This document shows positions 3,721-30,603 of a stretch of DNA of 35,910 bases, in pieces. A model generated the notes under the pieces. The model did not search any database. It saw only the letters and a list, made by a program, of their open reading frames with translations, and was not told the DNA's origin. The stretch lies in the NCBI GenBank assembly GCA_964370615.1, contig CAYJJY010000002.1, forward strand, positions 5,208 to 41,117, given 5' to 3'. How positions within the stretch are numbered: the stretch's first letter is position 1; every line of letters starts with the position of its first letter. Both the position numbers and the translations under genes were made by a program. This DNA comes from an uncultured Muribaculaceae bacterium (lineage in GTDB: Bacteria > Bacillota_I > Bacilli_A > RF39 > UBA660).

Positions 3721-4617
3721 TTATTTGTTCCATAAAATGTTTGGATATATATTATTTTTGATCATTTCATCTATAGCTTTTACTACTTTTTCTTTATCTT
3801 CTTTATAAGTAATTCCGTACCATTTAGCATCTGTTTTTAAAACTTTAACTTTAGCGTAATTTAATGTATTTGCTTCTTGTAATGTTGTTGGGATTAAAAA
3901 CTCATCTGTTTCTAAATTCCAGTTAGTTAAAAACTCAACAAATCTTGATTCTAAGAATGAAAATATTGATGGATCAAAACATAATAAATTCATTGATACT
4001 AAATCATTTCTTTCCATGATAATTTCTGTGCTTCCATCTAGTGGTGAAGCAATTATTTTTTGCTCTTTAATTATTTTACTTTCTATTAAGTTAATTAGTT
4101 CATCATTCTGATGAAGACATACTGCTCTTTTTACAGAACCATTTTCTGATAATGTTTTTTCCACTTCATATCCTATCACACAATACTCATTTTCTTTTTT
4201 ATTTTCTAAAAATTGTGAGGCAACTAAAAATGCATCATATCCATAAAAGTCATCGGCATTTATGATTATAAATGGTTCATTGACAACTTCTTTAGTGCAT
4301 AATATTGCGTGAGAAGTTCCTAGTGGTTTTATTCTTGTTGTTGGTATTTTAAAGTTTTCAGGAATATTTTTTAAATTTTGAAAAACATATTCAACCGTGA
4401 TATTTTTAGGAACTCTTGAACCTATAGTATCTTTAAATATGTCGTAGTTTTCTTCTTTTATAATAAAGACTATTTTATTAAATCCTACTTTAATTGCATC
4501 ATAGATTGAATAATCTATCAAAAATTCACCATTTGGACCTATCGCTTCAATTTGTTTTAAACCGCCAAATCTACTACCCATTCCGGCAGCCATAATTACT
4601 AATGTTTTATCTTTCAT
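3721..4617 (-). CDS. Sugar-phosphate nucleotidyltransferase family protein
   Basis: The N-terminal VIMAAGMGSRFGGLKQ motif is the glycine-rich NTP-binding loop of nucleotidyltransferase-fold enzymes. RBS is AGGTGA. The sugar specificity cannot be called. Confidence 0.7.
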   Translation of the reverse strand: MKDKTLVIMAAGMGSRFGGLKQIEAIGPNGEFLIDYSIYDAIKVGFNKIVFIIKEENYDIFKDTIGSRVPKNITVEYVFQNLKNIPENFKIPTTRIKPLGTSHAILCTKEVVNEPFIIINADDFYGYDAFLVASQFLENKKENEYCVIGYEVEKTLSENGSVKRAVCLHQNDELINLIESKIIKEQKIIASPLDGSTEIIMERNDLVSMNLLCFDPSIFSFLESRFVEFLTNWNLETDEFLIPTTLQEANTLNYAKVKVLKTDAKWYGITYKEDKEKVVKAIDEMIKNNIYPNILWNK

Positions 4618-4633
4618 ATCATCACCTACTTTA

Positions 4634-4662
4634 ATAGTATCAAGGTTTTTTTATTTAGTCAA
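4634..4662 (-). promoter_or_regulatory. Promoter of the nucleotidyltransferase gene
   Basis: Minus strand TTGACT (4662-4657), 17 nt, then TGaTACTAT with the -10 at 4639-4634. Confidence 0.5.
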
Positions 4663-4665
4663 ATT

Positions 4666-4686
4666 AAAAAACAACTTGCGTTGTTT
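4666..4686 (-). terminator. Intrinsic terminator after tlyA
   Basis: Minus strand AAACAAC-GCAA-GTTGTTT (7-bp stem) followed by T6. Confidence 0.7.
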
Positions 4687-5486
4687 TATCTACTGCGGCT
4701 ACGACCTGCTCTAAATGCTTGATCAACTATACTAACAAAATTATGATATGTTTCATTTTTAGTAGTATTGAAATGAGCTATGTACTCTATGTTACCATCT
4801 CCACCTTGAATTGGTGAGTGTGTAATATTTTTCAAATAGTAACCTTTGGTTTTAAAATAATTATTTATTCCGTTTAAAATATTAACGTGAATTGGTTTAT
4901 TTAAAATTATTCCTTTATATTTATCAGCTATTTCTTTTCCACATTCAAATTGTGGTTTAATTAAAAATACTAAGTCACAGTTTGTTTCTATTTCTTCAAT
5001 TTTATCAATTAATAGTTTTAAAGAAATAAATGAAACATCAGCTATTATAAAGTCAATATTTTCAAAATATTTTGGTTCTAAGTATTTAAAGTTTGTTTTT
5101 TCTAATAGTGTTATTTTTTCATTATTCTTTAGTTTTTCATCCATTAAATCTGTTCCTACATCTACAGCTAAAACTTTATTAGCTTTATATTGTAGGGCGC
5201 AATCTGTAAATCCTCCAGTTGATGAACCTATATCTAAGATATTTGCTCCTTCAAAGTTTAATTTAAATTTTTTGATTGCTTTTTCCAATTTTAATCCACC
5301 ACGTGAAACGAATTTTAGAGTGTTATTTCTTAATACCACTAGTTCGTCTTCTGGTTTTATTTTTGTACTATCTTTTGTAATAACTTTACCATTTAAAGTT
5401 ATATTTTTATTTCTTAATAATTCTTGTGCTTTACTTCTTGTAGGCGCAAGATTTCTTATTACTAATTCTTTATCTAATCTATTCAT
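4686..5486 (-). CDS. tlyA: TlyA-family 23S/16S rRNA (cytidine-2'-O)-methyltransferase
   Basis: An N-terminal S4-like region is followed by an FtsJ-type SAM motif (FVSRGGLKLEKA...ILDIGSSTGGFTD...AVDVG). The ATG shares one base with the upstream stop codon (TGATG). Confidence 0.85.
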   Translation of the reverse strand: MNRLDKELVIRNLAPTRSKAQELLRNKNITLNGKVITKDSTKIKPEDELVVLRNNTLKFVSRGGLKLEKAIKKFKLNFEGANILDIGSSTGGFTDCALQYKANKVLAVDVGTDLMDEKLKNNEKITLLEKTNFKYLEPKYFENIDFIIADVSFISLKLLIDKIEEIETNCDLVFLIKPQFECGKEIADKYKGIILNKPIHVNILNGINNYFKTKGYYLKNITHSPIQGGDGNIEYIAHFNTTKNETYHNFVSIVDQAFRAGRSRSR

Positions 5487-5839
5487 CAGTTTTTTCTCAC
5501 TTTCGTTGTTATAATTGTGTAATCTTTTCCAAAAAGATTTTTGTGTTCTGTTTTTATTGTTACTGTTTGTTGTTCATTACTTAATGTATTAATATCTGTT
5601 AGTGTAAATCCTAGTTCATTGTAAGTTGTGACAATTGTATTTGAGTACATTTTGCTGTTGGTTCCGTAAATAATCAATATATTGTCATTAATATTTTCTG
5701 CTTGATTTTGTTCTGATATTTCAAAATATTTCGCATAACCATTAAAGAAATTTAAAGTATTAAAAAATATTTTTGAACTTATTGTTAATGTTAAGATAAG
5801 AGCTAATGCGATTGCACCGATAATAATTTTTGTTTTCAT
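5486..5839 (-). CDS. Small membrane-anchored or secreted hypothetical protein
   Basis: MKTKIIIGAIALALILTLTI is a signal or anchor segment. I chose the ATG at 5839 (RBS GGTGA 5 nt upstream) rather than the track's GTG at 5851. Confidence 0.7.
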   Translation of the reverse strand: MKTKIIIGAIALALILTLTISSKIFFNTLNFFNGYAKYFEISEQNQAENINDNILIIYGTNSKMYSNTIVTTYNELGFTLTDINTLSNEQQTVTIKTEHKNLFGKDYTIITTKVRKN

Positions 5840-5855
5840 TCCATTCACCACTTAA

Positions 5856-5884
5856 ATTATATAATATTTTTGTCTTAATAGCAA
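5856..5884 (-). promoter_or_regulatory. Candidate promoter of the small-protein/tlyA operon
   Basis: Minus strand TTGCTA (5884-5879), 17 nt, TATAAT (5861-5856). Confidence 0.45.
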
Positions 5885-5892
5885 TGGGCGAT

Positions 5893-5913
5893 AAAAAAAG
5901 ACTTAAAGTCTTT
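5893..5913 (-). terminator. Intrinsic terminator after the nitroreductase gene
   Basis: AAAGACT-TAA-AGTCTTT hairpin followed by T7 on the minus strand. It overlaps the stop codon. Confidence 0.7.
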
Positions 5914-6454
5914 AAATTATTCTCATTATATCTTTGGTTTCGTGACGAATTGGATTTTTACCATTTTCATTAATGTAACCATATGTTATGATGGCAGCTA
6001 CTGTTTCTTCTTTTGGTAAATTTATCAATTTAGCAATAACTTGGTCATCTATAACTCCGAATATACATGTTCCTACTCCTTTTTCAAAGGCTGCTAAACA
6101 AAATGTTTGGCATGCTATTCCAGCATCAAACATTTCCCATTCACTACCTTTGTTAGTTGCATATTCATCACCTTTTAATTTTCCCGATTTACCTTTGACA
6201 TAGCTTAATACTGCTACTTGTTTTGTATGTTCTAATGTTTGCATATTATAAGCAAAACCTTTAACGCCGTCATCTTTTATTTTTTTTATAATATTTTCAT
6301 CGGTAACAAAGGTATAACGTGCTGTTTGACTGTTGGCCCATGAGGGAGCAAACTTTGCTACTTCAACAATACTTTCTAATACTTCGTTTGAAACTATTTC
6401 ATCAGTATATTTTCTAATACTTCTTCTATTTTTTAACATTTCAATTGCTTCCAT
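5912..6454 (-). CDS. Nitroreductase family protein (FMN-dependent)
   Basis: MEAIEMLKNRRSIRKY...PSWANSQ is the typical nitroreductase N-terminus. The ATG at 6454 has AAGGAG 6 nt upstream, which I prefer to the track's upstream ATG at 6475. Confidence 0.85.
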   Translation of the reverse strand: MEAIEMLKNRRSIRKYTDEIVSNEVLESIVEVAKFAPSWANSQTARYTFVTDENIIKKIKDDGVKGFAYNMQTLEHTKQVAVLSYVKGKSGKLKGDEYATNKGSEWEMFDAGIACQTFCLAAFEKGVGTCIFGVIDDQVIAKLINLPKEETVAAIITYGYINENGKNPIRHETKDIMRII

Positions 6455-6455
6455 T

Positions 6456-6986
6456 TTATTCTCCTTTTTTTTCATAATGTAAATCGATTATCCCGTTATA
6501 ATGTTTACTATTAATCAGTTTTAATTTTGTTGTTGTTATATTTTGATTAAATAATTTAATTCCATCTCCTAAAATTATGGGAATAACCGAAATTATATAT
6601 TCATCAATCATATTTAATTCGTGGACTTGATTCACAATTGATGCTCCTCCACAAATCCAGATGTTTTTACCTGTTTTGTTTTTTAATTGTTCTAGTAATT
6701 GTTTAAGATTATTTTCTTGTTTTATTTCTGTTGTTTCTTTTATTTTATTGTTGGTTATGACATAAGTTATTTTTCCTTGATAAGGCCAATTGTCTTTAGC
6801 TAATTCTGTTGTTATTTGTTTATAGGTATTATAACCTAAAATAACTGTGTCTATTGTGTCATAAAATTCATTAAAACTTGATAGATCATTACTCTCACTA
6901 TCGCCTTGTAACCAATCTACAGAAAGGTCTTTTGTAGCTATATAGCCATCTAAACTTTTTGCTATGTATAAAATTATTTTTCTCAT
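6456..6986 (-). CDS. Dihydrofolate reductase family protein (RibD C-terminal-domain-like)
   Basis: The pattern KIILYIAKSLDGYIA...WICGGASIVNQ...DEYIISVIPIILGDG and the length fit this family. Confidence 0.75.
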   Translation of the reverse strand: MRKIILYIAKSLDGYIATKDLSVDWLQGDSESNDLSSFNEFYDTIDTVILGYNTYKQITTELAKDNWPYQGKITYVITNNKIKETTEIKQENNLKQLLEQLKNKTGKNIWICGGASIVNQVHELNMIDEYIISVIPIILGDGIKLFNQNITTTKLKLINSKHYNGIIDLHYEKKGE

Positions 6987-7023
6987 ATTATCACCATTTT
7001 TATTATATCATGATTTTGAATAT

Positions 7024-7046
7024 AAAAAAAAGTGTTTAACACTTTT
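7024..7046 (-). terminator. Intrinsic terminator after the lipoprotein gene
   Basis: AAAAGTGT-TAA-ACACTTTT (8-bp stem) followed by a T-run on the minus strand. Confidence 0.8.
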
Positions 7047-7662
7047 ATTCATAACTTATAATATAGGTATCTATTTCTTGCATATCTTCTTCTGTGATTT
7101 CGTAATATCCATTTGTTATTCCTAATTCAAAATCAATAGTAATTGGTTCTAGATATCCGATTTCACCAATTTGGGCTTCAATTGTGTCTAATACTTTATT
7201 AAAATATAAATCTTCAATATTACCATCTGTTGATTCAGTTGTAGCATCTGTAAATAATTGCGATAATACTGATATATCATTTACTGTTTTGTTTATTATA
7301 TCAATTGGATATATTTTAACTTCAACTTTATCACCATTTTTTGATACTTCATATTTTGAATATTTATATATTCTATCATATATTTCTTCTGCTCTTTTTA
7401 TTGTTTCTTCTTTTAAATCTTCTTCAATTGCATCAACATAGTAAATTAAGAATTCTACTTCAAAAGCAACGCCTTCGTAATAGTTTTCTTCAAATAAAGT
7501 TATATCTGAATCGATAAATAAGTCACGGTATTTTTCGTCGTGTTGATTCAAATAAATTGAGTTTAATTCCATAGTTGTATATGAAACTTCATCTATTTTG
7601 TTAAAACACCCTGTTAAAGATATTAAAATAGTACATATAAGTATTGTTTTTAAAAAATTCAT
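7045..7662 (-). CDS. Acidic lipoprotein, function unknown
   Basis: MNFLKTILICTILISLTGC is a signal peptide with a lipobox. RBS is GAGGTGG. Confidence 0.8.
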   Translation of the reverse strand: MNFLKTILICTILISLTGCFNKIDEVSYTTMELNSIYLNQHDEKYRDLFIDSDITLFEENYYEGVAFEVEFLIYYVDAIEEDLKEETIKRAEEIYDRIYKYSKYEVSKNGDKVEVKIYPIDIINKTVNDISVLSQLFTDATTESTDGNIEDLYFNKVLDTIEAQIGEIGYLEPITIDFELGITNGYYEITEEDMQEIDTYIISYE

Positions 7663-7681
7663 TTTTCCACCTCGTTTTTCA

Positions 7682-8875
7682 TTATAACATTTTTTTTGAT
7701 ATTACTGAACCTTTTTTATTTATTTTATAATTGTTTTTAAAGATTATTTGAGTTGTTATAGTTTGATATGTTACTGATGTTAAAAGTGCTAGTCCGGTAC
7801 AAAAAGGTGTATTTAAAACTGATACAATTAATCTTAAAATATTGGCTATAAATTTATTGGTAGTTACTATTTTGACTGAGTGTTCAAGTTGAAGATATAT
7901 TGTTTTTATTTTATATATTGGAAATAGTAAATAAGAAATTAAATCAAATGAATAATATATTAATATCAATATTAGTGAGACGTTGTAAAATTGATATAAA
8001 ATAGCATAAACTAGAAAACCGATTGTTAGCATAATTCCTATTAATTTGTAACTGTTTTTTTTATGTTTTATGTAATTAAATTCATTTTTACTAATATCTA
8101 TTTTAGCTATTGTCGCTGAGGCGTAAATAACATCCCACTGCACATCTGCTACTAAAGATACAAAAGCGATGGCTAAAGCATATTTAGGATCATAACTATA
8201 AATAGTACTAAATCCTATCATATAAATTATCATAAAGAAAAAACCTGTTGTTGTTTCTTCTAAATCATATTTATAATATGTTAAGAATTTTTTATCAAAT
8301 TTAATTTCTTTTAATTCTTTAGTAAAGAAGTAAAATGAGTAAATTAAAATCGGTAAGACTGATGTTATTACGATTAGACTTTGATTTTTAAATATCAAGG
8401 ACATCAAAGTTATTGAAGTTAATTTTATTATGTTATATATTATTAAGATTTTACTAGCTTTTTTATTTTCACTTTTAAAATAATAATTATTAATAACAAA
8501 CTTTAAAATTAATTCTGAGTATAATTGAACTATGACGTAAATAGAAAATGTTTTATAGATGTTTATATCTGCATTCATAAAATTCAAATAATTATCAATA
8601 TTAACTATTATAAATCCAAATAAGAGTAATCCTAAAATACTTCCCACAATCATTCCGGTTGGTACTGCTTTTTTATTTTTCGTTTTTTCTTTTTCAATAT
8701 TAGCGCCTACGGATAGACCACTTTTGATTATTGATATTATGAATTGTAATGGATAGGTTATTATAAATATATTAATTAAATTTTTATCAACTAGTAAACT
8801 TATTATTATCCACGTTATTGATGAGATGATTGAAGTTGTTGCTATATCTGCAGCTATGTGTAATAATCTTTTCAT
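7682..8875 (-). CDS. Polytopic membrane protein (about 10 TM; possibly MOP/MATE-flippase-like), function unknown
   Basis: Hydrophobic segments run throughout the protein. RBS is AAGGAG. No diagnostic motif was recognised. Confidence 0.7.
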   Translation of the reverse strand: MKRLLHIAADIATTSIISSITWIIISLLVDKNLINIFIITYPLQFIISIIKSGLSVGANIEKEKTKNKKAVPTGMIVGSILGLLLFGFIIVNIDNYLNFMNADINIYKTFSIYVIVQLYSELILKFVINNYYFKSENKKASKILIIYNIIKLTSITLMSLIFKNQSLIVITSVLPILIYSFYFFTKELKEIKFDKKFLTYYKYDLEETTTGFFFMIIYMIGFSTIYSYDPKYALAIAFVSLVADVQWDVIYASATIAKIDISKNEFNYIKHKKNSYKLIGIMLTIGFLVYAILYQFYNVSLILILIYYSFDLISYLLFPIYKIKTIYLQLEHSVKIVTTNKFIANILRLIVSVLNTPFCTGLALLTSVTYQTITTQIIFKNNYKINKKGSVISKKML

Positions 8876-8896
8876 AAATACTCCTTATTTTTTTTA

Positions 8897-8905
8897 ATTA
8901 TAACA
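8897..8905 (-). promoter_or_regulatory. Extended -10 element (TGTTATAAT) upstream of the membrane-protein gene
   Basis: Minus strand TGTTATAAT lies 22 nt upstream of the ATG at 8875. Confidence 0.4.
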
Positions 8906-8926
8906 TTTTTATATTAAAAAAAATCA

Positions 8927-10204
8927 TTATTTATGATTTTTTATTAAATTTTGGAAATGTTTTCCTCTTTCTTCAAAATTAAGAAAATAACCGTGACTTG
9001 CTGCTGCTGGCGATAAAATTGCGGCTGTTTTTGGTTGACAATTTTCTAATGCCCATTTTGTTGCTTCATCTAAATTAGCGAATAAGATACAATTTTTTTG
9101 ACAATTTTCTTTTAATAATATTTTATATATTTTTTCTCCTGATGCATACATCAATAATATATTATCTAATTCCGAGGTTAGGATATAATCGGTTAGAATT
9201 GTATAATCAATTCCCCTATCTACTCCGCCTAAAAAGATTGTTTTGGTATTAGGAATACTTGTTATGGCATTTATAGCTGATTCTGCTGTAGTAGAAATAG
9301 AATCATCATAATAACTAACACCATTAACTGTATCGATAAATTCTAGGCGATGTGAGAGTGGTTGATATGTTATTAATGCTTCATATAATGCTTCTTCACT
9401 TATTCCATACATCTTTGTTATTTTATTAACAAAGGCAATGTTTAAAAGATTATTAGGTCCATGTAATTTAATATTGTTGTAATTTTCTTTTATTATTTTG
9501 GGAATATCTTCATTTGTTATGATGTATTTATCACAATCTATTTTAGAAGATATTTTTTCACCAACAAATAATTTATCACCCTTAGTTTGATGTTTATAAA
9601 TATTCGCTTTACAATTAAAGTAATTTTTTATTGTGTGATGTCTTTGTAGATGATCTTCATATAAGTTTAAAAATATGGCAGTGTGTGGTGAAATTTTTAA
9701 TGTTTCTAATTGATATGATGATAATTCTGTTACTATCATTGTTTTTTCATTAATGTTTTCAATTAATTCGAAAACTGGTAAACCGATATTACCACCTAAT
9801 AGGACATCTTTATTATTTTCTTTTAAAACGTGATAAAGAAGTGAGGCTGTTGTACTTTTCCCTTTTGTTCCTGTTATTCCGATTATTTGCATACGATATT
9901 CTTTTATAAATTCTTCGATTTGGCTAGTAATCGTACAACTATATTCTTCAATGTTTTTTTCTAGTTCGACACCAGGACTTTTAAAAATAACATCATATTG
10001 TTCAATATTTTTTTGATAATCAATCCCACAGTAATATTTTGAGTCTGAGGTGATATTGGGTCTTATTTCTTTTAAATCAGCTACATCTAAACATTTAAAT
10101 CCTCTTATATTTTCTAATACATTATATGTTGATGAGCCTTCTTTTCCAAATCCTAAAACTAATACTTTTTTATCTTTTATAAGTTCTTTTAATCTATTTA
10201 TCAT
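8927..10204 (-). CDS. MurD-like Mur ligase paralogue (candidate MurD2-type UDP-MurNAc-L-Ala--L-Glu ligase)
   Basis: It has a MurD-like N-terminus (KKVLVLGFGKEG) and the Mur ligase P-loop GITGTKGKSTT. It is clearly divergent from the second murD at 29275-30603. It overlaps the upstream PP-loop gene. The start is uncertain: ATG at 10204, or the track's GTG at 10216. Confidence 0.6.
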   Translation of the reverse strand: MINRLKELIKDKKVLVLGFGKEGSSTYNVLENIRGFKCLDVADLKEIRPNITSDSKYYCGIDYQKNIEQYDVIFKSPGVELEKNIEEYSCTITSQIEEFIKEYRMQIIGITGTKGKSTTASLLYHVLKENNKDVLLGGNIGLPVFELIENINEKTMIVTELSSYQLETLKISPHTAIFLNLYEDHLQRHHTIKNYFNCKANIYKHQTKGDKLFVGEKISSKIDCDKYIITNEDIPKIIKENYNNIKLHGPNNLLNIAFVNKITKMYGISEEALYEALITYQPLSHRLEFIDTVNGVSYYDDSISTTAESAINAITSIPNTKTIFLGGVDRGIDYTILTDYILTSELDNILLMYASGEKIYKILLKENCQKNCILFANLDEATKWALENCQPKTAAILSPAAASHGYFLNFEERGKHFQNLIKNHK

Positions 10205-11558
10205 ATATAAAAACACTACCTTTCAATATTTCTACAAATTTTGGTGGTAAGAGATTTTCTTCATTATAAAAATTATCGAAATTTTTAAATTTTTCATTTT
10301 TAAAATTATCTGCAAAATATTTTAACATTAATGGTAATTCTTTGTTTTCTTGTTTATACTTTTGTAATGTTAAATTTAGTGAGGATTTAACTTCATCTCT
10401 TTCCCCTACACATTCAAATGGTTTTTCATCTAATATTCCAGTTAATTTTTGAAAGTCTAACATTAGTTTTTCTTCATCTAATAGATTAGCTCCGAATATT
10501 TTTTTCATTTCTTCAGTACTTAAATAAGGCGCTAGCATAATATAGACAAATAAACATTTTGGGCAATCTCCACACCAAATGTCTTCTTTACTCCCTTTAT
10601 TACAGCTTCTGAAAATATCGTGGTATTGTGGGAATTGCGCTACTGCTTTAGCTATTTGCATTTCAGAAAGTGGTCTTAAAAATGAAAAATATTTAACTGG
10701 TGTATTGATATTATTTTCATGATATTCATTAAAATCAAGTTCGAATTCAAAACTTTTTGAATATTGATGATTAACATCGGAGTTTTTTACAGTTGATTCA
10801 TTCGCACTTGCTTCATTTGATAAACAGACATATCCTAGATTATTTAAGTAGGCTGCTATAACTGATGAGAATGCTACTAAGGCTGAAAATGGTGTGTGTC
10901 CATTTAAAAAACCTTGCTTGTTTAATTCAATCATGTTTTGATCTAATGTTCTTTTAGCATTAATTAGTTTATCTTCTAAAAAAGCTTTTTTAACAGTGTT
11001 TGTTGTAGCTCCTCTTTGATTGATTATATAAGGATAGGTATTAAAATTATCTTTTAATAATTCTAGAGTTACTATTGAATCTTTTCCGCCACCAATAGGA
11101 ATTAAAACATTTTTTTCACTTATTTTTTCTAATTTGTTTAAAGGCAAAGTTTTATTCCCCGATGTTATATTCATAAAATCTGATTCTGCTTTTATATTAT
11201 TTAAATATAAAAATTCACCTAAGCCTTTTTTATATAATTTTTGCCACCAGTTTATTTGTTCTTCATTTAAGTGCATGCAAGGTATTGATATATTTGGAGA
11301 ACAGGTAATTTTCCAATAACTTACTAATTCTACCATTCCTAATGAAAAAACTAATTGTTCTAATTTTGTTAAGTCTATTTTTTCATTTTTGTTTTTTATA
11401 TCAATTGTCCAAGTTGGATTGAATTTTTTTAAATTTTCTATTTCAAAATTATATTCAATAAATATTGAATTTTCTTTCATTTCGTATTTATAACTGTTAT
11501 AAATAAAATTTGGATATTGTTTTTTAAAATTTAAATAATCTTTATGTCTATCTTGCAT
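10194..11558 (-). CDS. QueC-like PP-loop ATPase with a Cys4 zinc site and unique N- and C-terminal domains (candidate MurL-type UDP-MurNAc-L-Ala-L-Glu epimerase)
   Basis: The PP-loop GGGKDS is encoded at 11093-11076. C-x9-C-x2-C-x2-C (RSCNKGSKEDIWCGDCPKC) is encoded at 10604-10554. RBS is AAGGAG. The functional call rests on the pairing with the MurD-like gene. Confidence 0.45.
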   Translation of the reverse strand: MQDRHKDYLNFKKQYPNFIYNSYKYEMKENSIFIEYNFEIENLKKFNPTWTIDIKNKNEKIDLTKLEQLVFSLGMVELVSYWKITCSPNISIPCMHLNEEQINWWQKLYKKGLGEFLYLNNIKAESDFMNITSGNKTLPLNKLEKISEKNVLIPIGGGKDSIVTLELLKDNFNTYPYIINQRGATTNTVKKAFLEDKLINAKRTLDQNMIELNKQGFLNGHTPFSALVAFSSVIAAYLNNLGYVCLSNEASANESTVKNSDVNHQYSKSFEFELDFNEYHENNINTPVKYFSFLRPLSEMQIAKAVAQFPQYHDIFRSCNKGSKEDIWCGDCPKCLFVYIMLAPYLSTEEMKKIFGANLLDEEKLMLDFQKLTGILDEKPFECVGERDEVKSSLNLTLQKYKQENKELPLMLKYFADNFKNEKFKNFDNFYNEENLLPPKFVEILKGSVFIYDK

Positions 11559-11594
11559 ATAAATGCTCCTTTTTTCATTAATTTTCTACCTACA

Positions 11595-11623
11595 ATTATA
11601 CTTTATTCGATAGTTGTTGTCAA
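11595..11623 (-). promoter_or_regulatory. Consensus sigma-A promoter of the PP-loop/MurD-like operon
   Basis: Minus strand TTGACA (11623-11618), exactly 17 nt, TATAAT (11600-11595). Confidence 0.7.
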
Positions 11624-11686: not shown

Positions 11687-11944
11687 ATGATATTGATATA
11701 TTTTATAATTATAAATTTTATTACTTTATTTTTATTTTTTTTAGACAAGATTAAATCAATTAAAAATAAATGGCGTATCTCGGAAAAGACTTTTTTTATT
11801 TTATCTTTAATTGGTGGTTCTTTAGCTATATTAATAGGTATGTTTTTATTTAATCATAAAAGTAAAAAACTTTCTTTTAAGTTGATTTTTTATTTAATTC
11901 TTGCTTTGCAAATACTATGTTCTATATATATTATTTTTAAATAA
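11687..11944 (+). CDS. DUF1294-family small membrane protein
   Basis: DK..S..NKWRISEKT...GGSLAILIGMFLFNHKSKK matches the DUF1294 signature as I remember it. Confidence 0.7.
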   Translation: MILIYFIIINFITLFLFFLDKIKSIKNKWRISEKTFFILSLIGGSLAILIGMFLFNHKSKKLSFKLIFYLILALQILCSIYIIFK

Positions 11945-11956
11945 AATTTATTAGAG

Positions 11957-13042
11957 GTGAATTTTATCAAAATTAATTATTGGTTGTTTAGTTTAATTGT
12001 TTTTATTTGCCTAATTGGATTAGTTATGGTTTATTCTTCTTCTTATGTTTGGGCAGAGTACAAGTTTGATGATGCCTTTCAATTTATAAAAAATCAAAGT
12101 TTATTTTTTGTTATTGGAATTATTTTGATGTTATTTATAAGTAAGATTAACTTTAAATTTTATGAAAAAAATCACAAACTTATTATTATCGGATGTTTGC
12201 TTTTGTTAGTTTTAGTTTTAATTCCAGGAATAGGAACTATTAGAAATGGTTCTCGAAGTTGGTTTGGGATTGGTTCGTTTGGAATACAACCTAGTGAGTT
12301 TTCTAAATTAGGGATGATTATTTTTAGTGCTGCTTTCTTGGTTAAATTTGATAAAATTAAAAATTTAAAGAGTATTTTTTTTGTTTTATTTTTAACTTTA
12401 GTTGTTTTTATTTTAATTATGTTACAACCTGATTTTGGAACAGGAACAATAATTTTTATGAGTATTATTGCAATGTTATTTGTGGCTGGTTTAGATATAA
12501 AATATTTTGTTAGAATGGGATTTTTGGGTGTTGGGGCTATTGTTTTACTTATTGTTACTGCTCCTTACCGGTTAGAACGTATTTTATCTTTTTTAAATCC
12601 TTGGTCTGATCCTTTAGGTAGTGGTTTTCAAATTATTCAAAGTTTATATGCAATTGGTCCGGGTGGTTTATTTGGGTTTGGTTTGGGTAATTCAAGACAA
12701 AAGCACTTCTATTTACCAGAACCACAAACTGATTTTATTTTCGCAATTATTTGTGAAGAACTAGGATTTTTAGGTGCTTTTATTGTTATTGCTATTTTTG
12801 CTTTAATTTGTATTATTGGTTTTAGAATTGCTTATAGGTGTCCTGATAAATTTGGTAAATTTTTAGCTTTTGGGATTGTTTTTCAATTATCTTTTCAAGC
12901 TGTTTTAAACTTAATGGTTGTAGTTGGTTTAATTCCAGTTACTGGAGTTACGCTACCTTTTTTATCTTATGGTGGTTCTAGTTTATTGATTACTTTGTGT
13001 AGTATGGGAATTGTTTTAAACATAAGTCGGTATTCTAAATGA
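11957..13042 (+). CDS. SEDS family peptidoglycan glycosyltransferase (FtsW/RodA/SpoVE)
   Basis: Motifs GSRSWFGIGSFGIQPSEFSKL, PDFGT, LPEPQTDFIFA and PFLSYGGSS are present. The start is uncertain because the track's GTG at 11957 sits inside the AGAGGTG RBS. The stop is TGA. Confidence 0.85.
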   Translation: MNFIKINYWLFSLIVFICLIGLVMVYSSSYVWAEYKFDDAFQFIKNQSLFFVIGIILMLFISKINFKFYEKNHKLIIIGCLLLLVLVLIPGIGTIRNGSRSWFGIGSFGIQPSEFSKLGMIIFSAAFLVKFDKIKNLKSIFFVLFLTLVVFILIMLQPDFGTGTIIFMSIIAMLFVAGLDIKYFVRMGFLGVGAIVLLIVTAPYRLERILSFLNPWSDPLGSGFQIIQSLYAIGPGGLFGFGLGNSRQKHFYLPEPQTDFIFAIICEELGFLGAFIVIAIFALICIIGFRIAYRCPDKFGKFLAFGIVFQLSFQAVLNLMVVVGLIPVTGVTLPFLSYGGSSLLITLCSMGIVLNISRYSK

Positions 13043-14133: not shown

Positions 14134-15525
14134 ATGAAAGTTATGGAAAAACTTTTTCTAAATAAAAGTGATGATGAGATTTATAAAGTTTTTTTTGATT
14201 TTAAAAATAAAAAAGATTATAAATTAGCTATTAAAACTTTAAAAAGATTAAAGGATAAAAAAAATGCGAAATATTTTTATTATTTAGCTTTGTGTTATTT
14301 TTATTTGTTTGACGAAAGAAAAGCTAATAAGATTTTAAAAAATGCTTTCAATTTTGAATTTTCAAATAAAGAGAAAAATGAAATAACTGCTTTGCAAGAA
14401 AGTATTAATAGTTCTTTATTTAAACCAGCTAAAGTTTTAGAATTATATTCAAATGATGAAATTGATAAAGTTAAAACTCATATTGAAACTTATTTTGGTC
14501 AAAGTGAAATTATTCTTAAAGAGATGATGGCTTTAGATATTCATGTTAATATTCATGTTATTCCTCCTACTAAAGATAAGGATTATTATACTTTAGTTAC
14601 TTGTGGTATGGGTGCGCATAAAATGAATGTTCCAAGTGAGTTAGTAGAAGAAAATTTAAATAGAGCTGAACTTGTTCTTTACCTACCCTCTTACTGGCAA
14701 ATTGATAGTGATTTGGAAAAATGGTATTGGCCTTTACGTTGGTTAAAAATATTAGCTCGTTTACCAATTGAACATAATAGTTGGTTAGGTGGTTTCCATA
14801 CTGTTCCTAATGGTGGTTCTTTTCATTCAAATACTGAGTTATCTGGGATGATTCTTATTGACCCTCAAAATGTTTCTAAGGATTCTTTTGTTTGTAAGTT
14901 TAATGATGAGGTTATTAATTTTTATCAAATATTTCCTTTATACGAGAATGAGATGAATTATAAATTGGAGTATGGCGCTGATGCTTTATTTAGTTTTATG
15001 CCTTATGTTAGTTCAGTTGTTGATTTGAAGCGTAAAAATGCTTTTGATATTTATTTTGAAAATGTAATTGATTGTGCTTATAATCATGCAGATAAAATCA
15101 AAGAACTGAATTTGGATACTGATTTATTAAATGCTTGTAATCACTTAGTTATTTATTTACGTTGGTGTTTTGAAAATAATTTACTAAATGATAATTTTAA
15201 AAATTCTTGTTTAAAGATTGATATCAATGATTTAATTGCATTTAGAAACTTTTTTCATGAATCTCTAATTGGTGATTTAACTTATTATATGTTTAATGAC
15301 GAAGGTAAAAATTTTACAGATTTTTTCTTTATCTTTGATGATCCTAATGGATTTCCTGCTTATATAGATAATTACGCTTTAAATTACTTTGGTGAAGAAA
15401 AATATAACTGCAAAGAGTTTAAAGATGAGGCTTATTTATTTGTCCCTTTAAACGATGATTATTATTTTAGTTTAAAGAAAGTTTTAGATAAAAATTATGA
15501 GATTTTTAAAAACAATAAAAATTAA
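14134..15525 (+). CDS. Suppressor-of-fused (SUFU) domain protein with an N-terminal TPR-like hairpin and a C-terminal extension (immunity-protein-like)
   Basis: The central region YYTLVTCGMGAHKMNVP...AELVLYLPSYWQ...WYWPLRWLKILARLP...GGFHTVPNG...INFYQIFPLYENE matches the bacterial SUFU signature. Confidence 0.75.
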   Translation: MKVMEKLFLNKSDDEIYKVFFDFKNKKDYKLAIKTLKRLKDKKNAKYFYYLALCYFYLFDERKANKILKNAFNFEFSNKEKNEITALQESINSSLFKPAKVLELYSNDEIDKVKTHIETYFGQSEIILKEMMALDIHVNIHVIPPTKDKDYYTLVTCGMGAHKMNVPSELVEENLNRAELVLYLPSYWQIDSDLEKWYWPLRWLKILARLPIEHNSWLGGFHTVPNGGSFHSNTELSGMILIDPQNVSKDSFVCKFNDEVINFYQIFPLYENEMNYKLEYGADALFSFMPYVSSVVDLKRKNAFDIYFENVIDCAYNHADKIKELNLDTDLLNACNHLVIYLRWCFENNLLNDNFKNSCLKIDINDLIAFRNFFHESLIGDLTYYMFNDEGKNFTDFFFIFDDPNGFPAYIDNYALNYFGEEKYNCKEFKDEAYLFVPLNDDYYFSLKKVLDKNYEIFKNNKN

Positions 15526-23079: not shown

Positions 23080-23103
23080 AAAAAAGAAGAATCTCTTCTT
23101 CTT
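23080..23103 (-). terminator. Intrinsic terminator after the pilin-LRR gene
   Basis: Minus strand AAGAAGA-AGAGAT-TCTTCTT followed by a T-run. Confidence 0.7.
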
Positions 23104-24467
23104 TAAGGTTTTACTATAAAATTAACATTACTTGCTTTATTGGAACTGGAATTAAACTTTTCTACTTCTAATTGTGTTTTGGCATAGGCTTCTGTTAAGT
23201 TTATTGTTTCAAAAAACATTTCTTCCATATCTTCTACGTTACTCAAATCAAAACTACTTAAATCCAACTTTTTTAAACTTGTGGCTTCAGCGAACATTTT
23301 ATACATGGTAATGACATTTGAGGTATTAAAATTAGTCAAATCTATTGTTTCAATACTGGAAACAGTATGAAACATTCCATGCATGTATTTAACATTACTA
23401 GTATCAAAACTACTTAAATTGATGTTAATTAAATTTTTTGAAGCTCCAAATAAGTGAGCCATATTAACTACTTTACTTGTGTTAAAATTAGATAAATCTA
23501 ATTCTGTAACATTTAAATAACCAAATGTAAAGTACATTTCAGTAACATTACTGGTATCAAAACTACTAACATCTAGGTTTGTTAAACTACTTGCATTATA
23601 AAACATAGCTGTTAAGTTAACTACATTACTAGTATTGAAATTACTTAAATCTATATCAGTTAAACTACTAGCATTGTAAAACATTTGGGCCATATTAGTA
23701 ACATTGTCAGTTTTTATATTTATTAAGTCTACTTTTTCTAAACTAATGGTATTACTGAACATACTTGACATATCTGTAACATGTGATGTGTCATAAACTT
23801 CATTAAAATTTATTTCTTCAAGTTTGATAAAATTGCAAAACATTGATTTGTTTTGAGTTGCATTGCAAACACCACCTTGAATAGGAAAAGCAGAAATAAT
23901 TCCATCTGTTTCAATATTTAAAATTACTTGTTCCTCTTTTTCAATAATATATCCAACAACACTATGATTTCCTTCTAATGAGAAATCCCATTTTATAGCT
24001 GCAGTTTCAAATTCAGTTGATTTTGTTGAGTAAAAGTTTATATGTGTTATTTTTTCACGATAATCTCCTATTTGTTTTTGAAAATTATCGGCACTTAGCA
24101 TTGCATAAGATGGAACTTGGCAACTTTCTGAGTATTCGAATTGATATTGTTTCATAGTTACTTCCCATGAATATAAAATACATCCTTCTAACACATCGCC
24201 TGTCATAGGATTTGAAGGAAGTTCGGTTATAATTCCAACCTCTTTTAAGTCTTGAAACTGTAGTGTTTTTTTTGCACTACTAAAACCTAATGAGTATTGT
24301 GAGGCATATTTTACTGCATGATCTAATAATGTATCTACTTGCATGTCATAAGCTGATTGTTGTGAAGTTATAATAGTTTTATTTACTATTGGAACTATTA
24401 CTGCTAGGATAATTCCTAAAATTATTATAACTGCTAATAATTCTACTAATGTAAATGCTTTTTTCAT
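23103..24467 (-). CDS. Prepilin-type N-terminal domain protein fused to a BspA-family (DUF285, 26-residue repeat) leucine-rich-repeat surface domain
   Basis: MKKAFTLVELLAVIIILGI is a class III (type IV pilin-like) leader with the conserved Glu at +5. The C-terminal half is built of D.SNFNTSNV.NM..MF.....L..-type repeats. Confidence 0.85.
   Translation of the reverse strand: MKKAFTLVELLAVIIILGIILAVIVPIVNKTIITSQQSAYDMQVDTLLDHAVKYASQYSLGFSSAKKTLQFQDLKEVGIITELPSNPMTGDVLEGCILYSWEVTMKQYQFEYSESCQVPSYAMLSADNFQKQIGDYREKITHINFYSTKSTEFETAAIKWDFSLEGNHSVVGYIIEKEEQVILNIETDGIISAFPIQGGVCNATQNKSMFCNFIKLEEINFNEVYDTSHVTDMSSMFSNTISLEKVDLINIKTDNVTNMAQMFYNASSLTDIDLSNFNTSNVVNLTAMFYNASSLTNLDVSSFDTSNVTEMYFTFGYLNVTELDLSNFNTSKVVNMAHLFGASKNLININLSSFDTSNVKYMHGMFHTVSSIETIDLTNFNTSNVITMYKMFAEATSLKKLDLSSFDLSNVEDMEEMFFETINLTEAYAKTQLEVEKFNSSSNKASNVNFIVKP
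23187..23855 (-). repeat. About nine tandem 25-26-residue LRR units (coding repeat)
   Basis: The periodicity is visible in the protein (aa ~205-427) and in the DNA as recurring aacattac...gtattgaaatta-like blocks. Confidence 0.8.

Positions 24468-28060: not shown

Positions 28061-30603
<2,543 letters not shown>

Follow-up and report, generated by a model that had tools for sequence, protein, structure and literature searches.

The stretch of DNA analyzed here (35,910 nucleotides (nt); hereafter the window) carries on its minus strand two overlapping open reading frames (ORFs), which encode a protein of 454 amino acids (aa) and a Mur ligase of 425 aa. The former is homologous to MurL and the latter to MurD, and the pair is considered in this study in relation to the MurD2/MurL system of Xanthomonas, a route to the D-Glu of the cell wall that does not depend on glutamate racemase. 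The pair and its putative expression signals are arranged as follows.

11595-11623, minus strand: sigma-70-type promoter-like sequence TTGACA-17-TATAAT, 12/12 matches to the consensus, about 36 nt 5' of the murL ATG.
11566-11570, minus strand: Shine-Dalgarno sequence AGGAG, read from the sequence, 7 nt before the murL ATG.
10194-11558, minus strand: the 454-aa murL ORF, from ORF reading and MurL homology.
10194-10204, minus strand: overlap of the murL stop and the ligase start, 11 nt, ATGATAAATAG, from ORF reading; translational coupling is proposed.
8927-10204, minus strand: ORF of the 425-aa MurD-family ligase, read from the ATG.

An initial annotation of this DNA had pointed to a perfect TTGACA-17-TATAAT sequence at 11623-11595 upstream of the 454-aa ORF. 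The sequence is indeed there and is the only one in the 35.9-kb window, against 0.04 expected; at least one match was found in 4 of 100 shuffles. It is a putative promoter, predicted from its match to the consensus. The overlap between the 454-aa ORF and a MurD-like ORF of 425-429 aa is also as that annotation described it. The TAG stop of murL (10196-10194) lies inside ATGATAAATAG, in which the ATG at 10204 is the ligase start, while an alternative GTG start at 10216 would give a ligase of 429 aa. Since the two closest relatives (L001 and L086) keep the identical 11-nt overlap and the same ligase N-terminus, the ATG start is favored. The GC content is about 26% throughout the window and 26-27% in the pair, with no compositional break at the murL-ligase pair.

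The sequence of the 454-aa protein identifies it as a MurL homologue. The NCBIfam MurL model NF041275 matches it with an E-value of 3.7e-75 and 253.1 bits, residues 59-399 being aligned to model positions 50-395 of 447. The Pfam domains PF26299 (MurL_N) and PF26298 (MurL_epimerase_C) are precomputed on a database protein (P0001) that is 100% identical to it, and all 120 listed homologues carry both domains; one source names a homologue as an epimerase. As a reference from Xanthomonas we used the murL gene with adjacent murD that is annotated by the Prokaryotic Genome Annotation Pipeline in a PLSDB entry listed as a plasmid (508 kb) of Xanthomonas sacchari (L090). Over 426 aa this MurL and the 454-aa protein share 30.5% identity (E = 1e-61), so that the relation to MurL proposed in the initial annotation was borne out by model and reference alike. 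An alignment of 29 diverse homologues gave 32 invariant columns, of which 32 are kept in the 454-aa protein and 31 in X. sacchari MurL. The invariant motifs include SYWK, GGGKDS, NGHxP, SNE, NHQxSK, LRP, SCN, WCxxCxKC and KPFECVG. The following features of the protein are used below.

10509-11132, minus strand: predicted QueC-like PP-loop ATP-pyrophosphatase core of MurL (aa 143-350), from the domain model and Foldseek.
11076-11093, minus strand: PP-loop motif GGGKDS of MurL (aa 156-161), invariant in the 29 homologues and in X. sacchari MurL.
10554-10604, minus strand: four-cysteine motif C319-x9-C329-x2-C332-x2-C335 (SCN...WCxxCxKC) of MurL, the four Cys being invariant, X. sacchari included.

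The four-cysteine motif is probably a structural metal site. This prediction is based on an analogy with QueC, which possesses a C-terminal four-cysteine metal motif with spacing like that of MurL.

The fold of MurL was analyzed on the basis of AlphaFold (AF2) models. The predicted local distance difference test (pLDDT) score was 93.5 for the full-length 454-aa model and 87.4 for a model of the core domain. With the core domain, the top match of Foldseek in the PDB was QueC (3bl5; E = 2.2e-6, probability 1.00, template-modelling scores 0.61/0.64), followed by argininosuccinate synthase, GMP synthase, LarE, MnmA and NAD synthetase; altogether 16 PP-loop matches had E-values of 1e-3 or below. 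The full-length model gave only weak and mixed Rossmann-like matches. At the sequence level the relation is more distant: the MurL sequence found no match in the PDB at E<=1, and the similarity to QueC is marginal (Pfam E = 0.0087). The MurL family profile, on the other hand, matches the PP-loop region of TtuA (E = 5.8e-5), with PIGGGKDS aligned to VSGGKDS; compared with the SGGxDS motif, the first Ser is replaced by Gly in MurL. The core of MurL thus models as a QueC-like PP-loop ATP pyrophosphatase, and the PP-loop call of the initial annotation gains the backing of both profile and fold. MurL has been said to have no recognisable domains (PMC8788868, PMC5808125). It was reported to use one ATP and to release AMP, and adenylation of the Glu alpha-carboxylate was proposed (PMC8788868, PMC5808125). 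The predicted PP-loop fold fits both this stoichiometry and the adenylation proposal.

The 425-aa ligase belongs to the MurD family. The TIGR01087 murD model gave 296.5 bits (cutoff 211.95) and every other Mur or FolC model 77 bits or fewer, and the best sequence matches in the PDB are MurDs. The ligase is therefore a MurD and not MurC, MurE, MurF, MurT or FolC, which was the family relation suspected at the outset. For a comparison at the residue level, we collected 74 ligases encoded directly 3' of murL (hereafter linked ligases), 30 homologues of the other MurD encoded in the window, E. coli MurD and X. sacchari MurD2. The relevant features of the window ligase are as follows.

Ligase N-terminus, minus strand: GxGxEG motif GFGKEG (aa 18-23), with Glu at the position of E. 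coli Thr16; class marker.
9851-9871, minus strand: P-loop GTKGKST (aa 112-118), Thr-Lys in the linked class; the canonical form is GSNGKT.
9647-9661, minus strand: YEDHL, in which Asp corresponds to Glu197 of X. oryzae MurD2 and to Asp182 of E. coli MurD.
9287-9307, minus strand: DDSISTT, with Ile for E. coli Lys319, as in 74/74 linked ligases and X. sacchari MurD2; Lys in 30/30 canonical MurDs.

The window ligase, X. sacchari MurD2 and 73-74 of the 74 linked ligases have Glu at E. coli T16, Thr-Lys at 112-113 and Ile at K319, a combination found in none of the 30 canonical MurDs; the linked class accordingly reads DSISTT where canonical MurDs read DSKxTN. This MurL-linked signature (Glu16, Thr-Lys 112-113, Ile319) was derived here and has no published definition. 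The motifs cited in the initial annotation (GFGKEG and the P-loop GTKGKST) are present, as is the PP-loop motif GGGKDS of MurL, and GFGKEG and GTKGKS turn out to be class markers of the MurL-linked ligases. When hidden Markov models (HMMs) were trained with the closest relatives left out, the window ligase scored 503 bits with the linked-class model and 213 bits with the canonical model. With the same models X. sacchari MurD2 scored 268 and 128 bits, and E. coli MurD 250 and 230 bits, respectively. The sequence of the window ligase thus places it in a MurL-linked class that shares its signature with Xanthomonas MurD2.

The signature bears on the choice of substrate, for K319T is the one change that lets E. 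coli MurD accept L-Glu (PMC8788868). The window ligase also keeps the Glu-contact residues T321, R348, S415 and F422, and it departs from its class at 5 of 70 class-conserved columns. In X. oryzae MurD2, the E197D replacement shifts stereospecificity, and the double replacement E197D/R358K switches the enzyme to D-Glu (PMC8788868). At the Glu197 position Glu is found in X. sacchari MurD2 and in 63 of the 74 linked ligases; the other 11, like the window ligase, have Asp. At the Arg358 position (E. coli K348) the window ligase keeps Arg (GGVDRG), a residue that is also found in canonical Bacilli MurDs. Since one specificity-setting residue is Asp instead of Glu, specificity of the window ligase for L-Glu is likely but not certain.

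The distribution of the pair was analyzed in a scan of one genome per GTDB species, with at least 594 confirmed MurL relatives. An exhaustive HMMER search gave 2,699 MurL clusters at 50% identity with E<=1e-3, of which 1,182 had E<=1e-30. Of the best 80 species-representative loci, 78 have the ligase gene immediately 3' of murL in the same orientation, 3 of them as a fusion. Since the murL stop and the GxGxEG motif of the ligase are a median of 50 nt apart (81 pairs), most murL-ligase pairs overlap or abut. In two loci, one from a Bacteroidales metagenome-assembled genome (MAG) (L058, murL at 4443-5876) and one from a Ruminococcus MAG (L073, 6582-7973), tblastn found no MurD-like gene in the fetched flanks. 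The hosts include Pseudobutyrivibrio and other Lachnospiraceae, Oscillospiraceae, Ruminococcus, Erysipelotrichaceae, and Alistipes and other Bacteroidales. By homology, the pair of the window, with its catalytic residues intact, is shared by several hundred or more species-level genomes from the gut and rumen, belonging to Bacillota and Bacteroidales. The MurD2/MurL route has been described as limited to Xanthomonas, Stenotrophomonas, a few alphaproteobacteria and rare actinomycetes (PMC8788868), and no account of MurL/MurD2 in Firmicutes or Bacteroidota turned up in the literature available to us. In public annotation the MurL-linked ligases are called "D-glutamate ligase".

Fused forms of MurL were also found among the cluster representatives: MurL-ligase fusions in both orders, a MurB-MurL fusion (791 aa) and a MurL-ligase-M20 peptidase fusion (1247 aa) (records P0242, P0243, P0273, P0335, P0366 and P0277; loci L014, L038 and L064). 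Some of these could be read-throughs of gene calling, while three are single ORFs in genome loci. In some other genomes murF/ddl, murC or mraY lies near the pair. The fusions, that with MurB included, and these neighbors tie the pair to the synthesis of peptidoglycan precursors.

The genomic position of the pair varies. Four related genomes have it in four different contexts, one of them (L087, 5375-7983; GCA_964370085.1) between gap and pgk of a glycolytic operon. It is suggested that the murL-murD2 pair moves as a cassette. In four Erysipelotrichaceae/Bulleidia MAGs (L019, L030, L035 and L068), the pair is located between secDF and recJ-apt-relA, and mraZ-rsmH-pbp-mraY nearby is followed by secDF rather than by murD, a hint that these MAGs may have no MurD besides MurD2. 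We considered that the pair had replaced murD inside the Erysipelotrichaceae division and cell wall (dcw) cluster and rejected the idea, because the pair sits between secDF and recJ. Homologues of MurL with about 28-29% identity, annotated as hypothetical, are also encoded on mobilizable actinobacterial plasmids (L091, 4962-6362, of Pseudonocardia alni pPaSha1; hits H3 and H4). The incomplete PLSDB gene table of pPaSha1 shows a WD40 protein, and no ligase, beside murL. A solitary MurL-like enzyme may act on another substrate.

The window contains another murD gene, which bears on the question of how the pair is used.

29275-30603, minus strand: second, canonical-type murD, 442 aa, with an altered Glu pocket; TIGR01087 382.8 bits.

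The initial annotation had reported a separate, canonical-looking murD at these positions. The gene is present, but as a minus-strand gene; when translated over these positions, the plus strand has 46 stops. The description as canonical-looking held in part. In addition to the TIGR01087 score, the second MurD keeps Lys319, GSNGKT, His183 and Lys198, its N-terminal motif is GNGKSG, and all ATP and catalytic motifs are intact. The Glu pocket, however, is altered, and the branch is long. Compared with the 15 nearest homologues, GGLDR (GGMNR in one) is changed to GGKDN, and AxASW/ACASW to AGSSI. At E. coli K348 there is Asn (GGKDNN), the Arg being lost, so that neither the basic residue nor the ACAS(W/L) loop is found. 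The mean identity of the second MurD to its homologues is about 49%, while these homologues are 57-65% identical to one another.

The second murD is located between uppP and enolase, outside any dcw cluster, in a block that is also found in a relative (L085). The syntenic orthologue in L085 is 59.5% identical to those homologues and 51% identical to the second MurD of the window. Between the window and L085 the other products of the block are more similar, uppP, queH, a 399-aa gene, iscS and enolase being 65-85% identical and a short thioredoxin 55%; among the larger genes murD is the one that has diverged most. In the window the end of murD and the start of enolase share 20 nt (29275-29294). 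In L085 the two are separated by a pair of additional small genes, for products of 93 and 269 aa, which appear to have been lost in the lineage of the window. Because of the pocket changes and the long branch, the copy that looks relaxed or shifted in function is the "canonical" murD and not the linked ligase.

The initial annotation had also envisaged both routes in one genome, and one half of this can be seen. The second murD is there, but murI and dat (Asp_Glu_race and Aminotran_4) gave no match in the 36-kb window or in the fetched locus flanks. Neither a canonical murD nor murI was found within +/-10 kb of the pair in about 85 loci. The assemblies with the closest MurL relatives differ from that with the closest canonical MurD.

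The pair has the following divergent neighbors.

11687-13042, plus strand: DUF1294 gene and SEDS gene, divergent from the murL promoter region; context.
11957-13042, plus strand: the SEDS gene itself, of ftsW/spoVE type, divergent neighbor of the operon; PF01098 E = 7e-118, TIGR02614 ftsW 412 bits (cutoff 337.5).

In classical dcw clusters ftsW/spoVE comes after murD. On the other side, 3' of the ligase, genes for a polytopic membrane protein (397 aa) and a lipoprotein-like protein (205 aa) occupy 7045-8875 (minus strand); neither protein matched a Pfam or NCBIfam family. The 51-nt gap between them and the ligase (about 8876-8926) contains an extended -10-like sequence, TGTTATAAT, and no terminator was predicted in it. 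The idea that the two downstream genes are parts of the system was not supported: they have no family matches and are not kept beside the pair in relatives. Elsewhere in the window, a DUF285 ("Mycoplasma") protein with an N-terminal prepilin-type methylation motif is encoded at 23103-24467 (minus strand), and a bacterial SUFU-domain protein fused to DUF7832 at 14134-15525 (plus strand). Scans of the window for Rfam families and tRNAs found nothing.

Taken as a whole, we consider it probable that the two genes form an operon for the known, racemase-independent MurD2/MurL route to D-Glu. Homology, signature residues and linkage support the proposal, made in the initial annotation, of a pair of this type in a low-GC Gram-positive. 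The consensus promoter at 11623-11595 would probably drive transcription of both genes, whose translation would probably be coupled. The MurD2-type ligase would add L-Glu to the cell-wall precursor. MurL, judged by its homology to the characterized enzyme, would then bind ATP in its QueC-like PP-loop domain and adenylate the alpha-carboxylate of the terminal L-Glu. The adenylation would make the alpha-proton more acidic, so that the alpha-carbon could be inverted, and hydrolysis of the adenylate would give the D-Glu product and AMP. As a speculation, the inversion might proceed via acid/base residues such as the invariant His221, His264, Lys268, Glu249 or Cys383, or via an oxazolone. The four invariant cysteines are probably ligands of a structural metal. 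The normal MurE/MurF pathway would receive the product. The second murD may work alongside on D-Glu from another source, or it may be drifting in function.

Several points weigh against this interpretation. The MurL score of 253 bits is far under the equivalog cutoff of NF041275 (700), although this model is named and built for Xanthomonadales, so that a score under the cutoff places the protein outside a narrow set of orthologues rather than outside MurL. In the window ligase the residue corresponding to Glu197 of X. oryzae MurD2 is Asp, and the one at E. coli L416, typically Tyr or Phe in the class, is His. In a neighbor-joining tree with E. coli MurC, MurE and MurF as the outgroup, X. sacchari MurD2 and the linked class do not group together (1% bootstrap; deep support is low). 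Because this tree left X. sacchari MurD2 unplaced, the class assignment is based on the signature residues and the HMM scores. The same genome has a second murD, and the pair is not obviously essential. Finally, the biochemistry is known for the enzymes of Xanthomonas, Micromonospora and Salinispora only (PMC8788868), and the activity of the pair in the Bacillota/Bacteroidota clade is predicted from homology.

There is another possible interpretation of the same genes. The ligase may be relaxed or dual in specificity, accepting L- and D-Glu, and MurL may mainly correct the product to the D form. The main route would then run through the canonical MurD and racemase-derived D-Glu, with the pair as a back-up or a condition-specific system. 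The Asp182-type residue of the window ligase is in line with this idea, as is the altered stereospecificity of X. oryzae MurD2 with E197D (PMC8788868), and the second murD is intact with all its ATP and catalytic motifs. Nevertheless, the 11 other linked ligases with Asp among the 74 keep the tight linkage to murL, all members of the class have Ile at K319, and replacement of this Lys (K319T) opens E. coli MurD to L-Glu (PMC8788868). The second murD, moreover, lacks Arg/Lys348 and evolves fast, which would be unexpected for the main enzyme of an essential step. We therefore regard this alternative as unlikely.

It is also conceivable, though quite improbable in our view, that the pair makes a different product, for example by adding and epimerizing an amino acid other than Glu or by acting on another UDP-sugar-peptide for a secondary wall polymer or glycopeptide. 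The identity to the characterized proteins is only about 25-30%, the His at E. coli L416 is unusual in the class, and the polytopic membrane protein and the lipoprotein are encoded just 3' of the pair. These membrane genes are not kept with the pair in relatives, however, whereas T321, R348, S415, F422 and 31 of the 32 MurL invariants are conserved and only 5 of the 70 class-conserved ligase columns differ. The MurB fusions and the murF/ddl, murC and mraY neighbors elsewhere also point to peptidoglycan. It is very unlikely that the two genes are passengers without a role in the organism, a cassette acquired recently or in decay: the four contexts in four related genomes (L087 between gap and pgk) would fit it, and the nearest matches outside the clade are from Lachnospiraceae while the canonical MurD groups with Bacilli MAGs, but both ORFs are intact with every family-invariant residue kept, a consensus promoter, a Shine-Dalgarno sequence and coupled starts are present, the GC content of 26-27% matches the surroundings, and accelerated change is seen in the other murD instead.

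If the pair supplies D-Glu by the MurD2/MurL route, a further step can be imagined, which we put forward tentatively and consider doubtful rather than established. MurD2/MurL may have taken over the D-Glu step in this lineage, and the old murD, released from constraint, may be changing its amino-acid specificity or nearing loss; its Arg/Lys348 contact is lost, its pocket loop is remodelled, and it is the fastest-evolving member of the syntenic block. The cell might even make two stem peptides that differ at position 2. More broadly, murL-murD2 might be a mobile cassette that frees hundreds of species of gut anaerobes (Bacillota and Bacteroidota) from glutamate racemase.

The pair in the window is very probably a MurD2/MurL system in a new host group, and at the family level it is already recognized by current Pfam and NCBIfam models. 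What is added here is a distribution wider than that in the literature, the signature of the MurL-linked class, the QueC-like fold predicted for MurL, and a second murD that may be drifting. The narrow range of MurD2/MurL was the ground on which the system was proposed as a pathogen-specific antibiotic target (PMC8788868). Should the pairs be active, many commensals would be affected by inhibitors as well, and many of the "D-glutamate ligase" annotations would be wrong as to the substrate. The cassette interpretation, if true, would contradict the published view of a narrow-spectrum drug target confined to a few genera. The QueC-like PP-loop fold would give structural backing to the adenylation mechanism proposed for MurL, and the coexistence with a drifting canonical murD would provide a natural case for the replacement of an essential step of cell-wall synthesis.

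The MurD2/MurL pair of X. oryzae was reportedly characterized by Feng et al. in 2017. The proteins concerned are MurD2 (XOO_1320) and MurL (XOO_1319), and orthologues were characterized in Micromonospora and Salinispora (PMC8788868, PMC5808125). In Xanthomonas, as in the window, murL precedes murD2: in X. sacchari (L090) murL at 4986-6341 and murD at 6322-7758 overlap by 20 nt. X. sacchari MurL resembles the MurL of the window over nearly its full length and in 31 of the 32 invariant residues, and Xanthomonas MurD2 resembles the window ligase in GxGxEG, GTKGKS, DSISTT (Ile for Lys319) and Arg348. The identity to the Xanthomonas pair is nevertheless low (30% for MurL and 25% for the ligase), and the window ligase differs from Xanthomonas MurD2 in having Asp for Glu197, Ala for Pro433 and His for Phe435. 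The host of the window is Bacilli-like with about 26% GC, whereas the characterized hosts are a proteobacterium or actinomycetes. It has a second murD in addition to the pair, while the published hosts were described as having no D-Glu-forming gene.

The canonical route, by MurD with MurI or a D-amino-acid aminotransferase, needs free D-Glu. Canonical MurD shares with the window ligase the three-domain architecture of Mur ligases and the catalytic residues K115, E157, H183, K198, R302 and D317; it differs in Lys319, GSNGKT and Ser/Thr16. The core of MurL, for its part, would have its fold and its PP-loop motif in common with QueC (3bl5) and other PP-loop enzymes. Unlike these, MurL has an extra N-terminal domain of about 140 aa and a C-terminal helical region, and the outcome of its reaction is epimerization and hydrolysis, whereas that of the PP-loop relatives is amidation, nitrile formation or thiolation. 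Enzymes of the PP-loop group (QueC, LarE, TtuA/MnmA and the argininosuccinate, GMP and NAD synthetases) adenylate a carboxyl or carbonyl group and release AMP, which matches the reported conversion of ATP to AMP by MurL.

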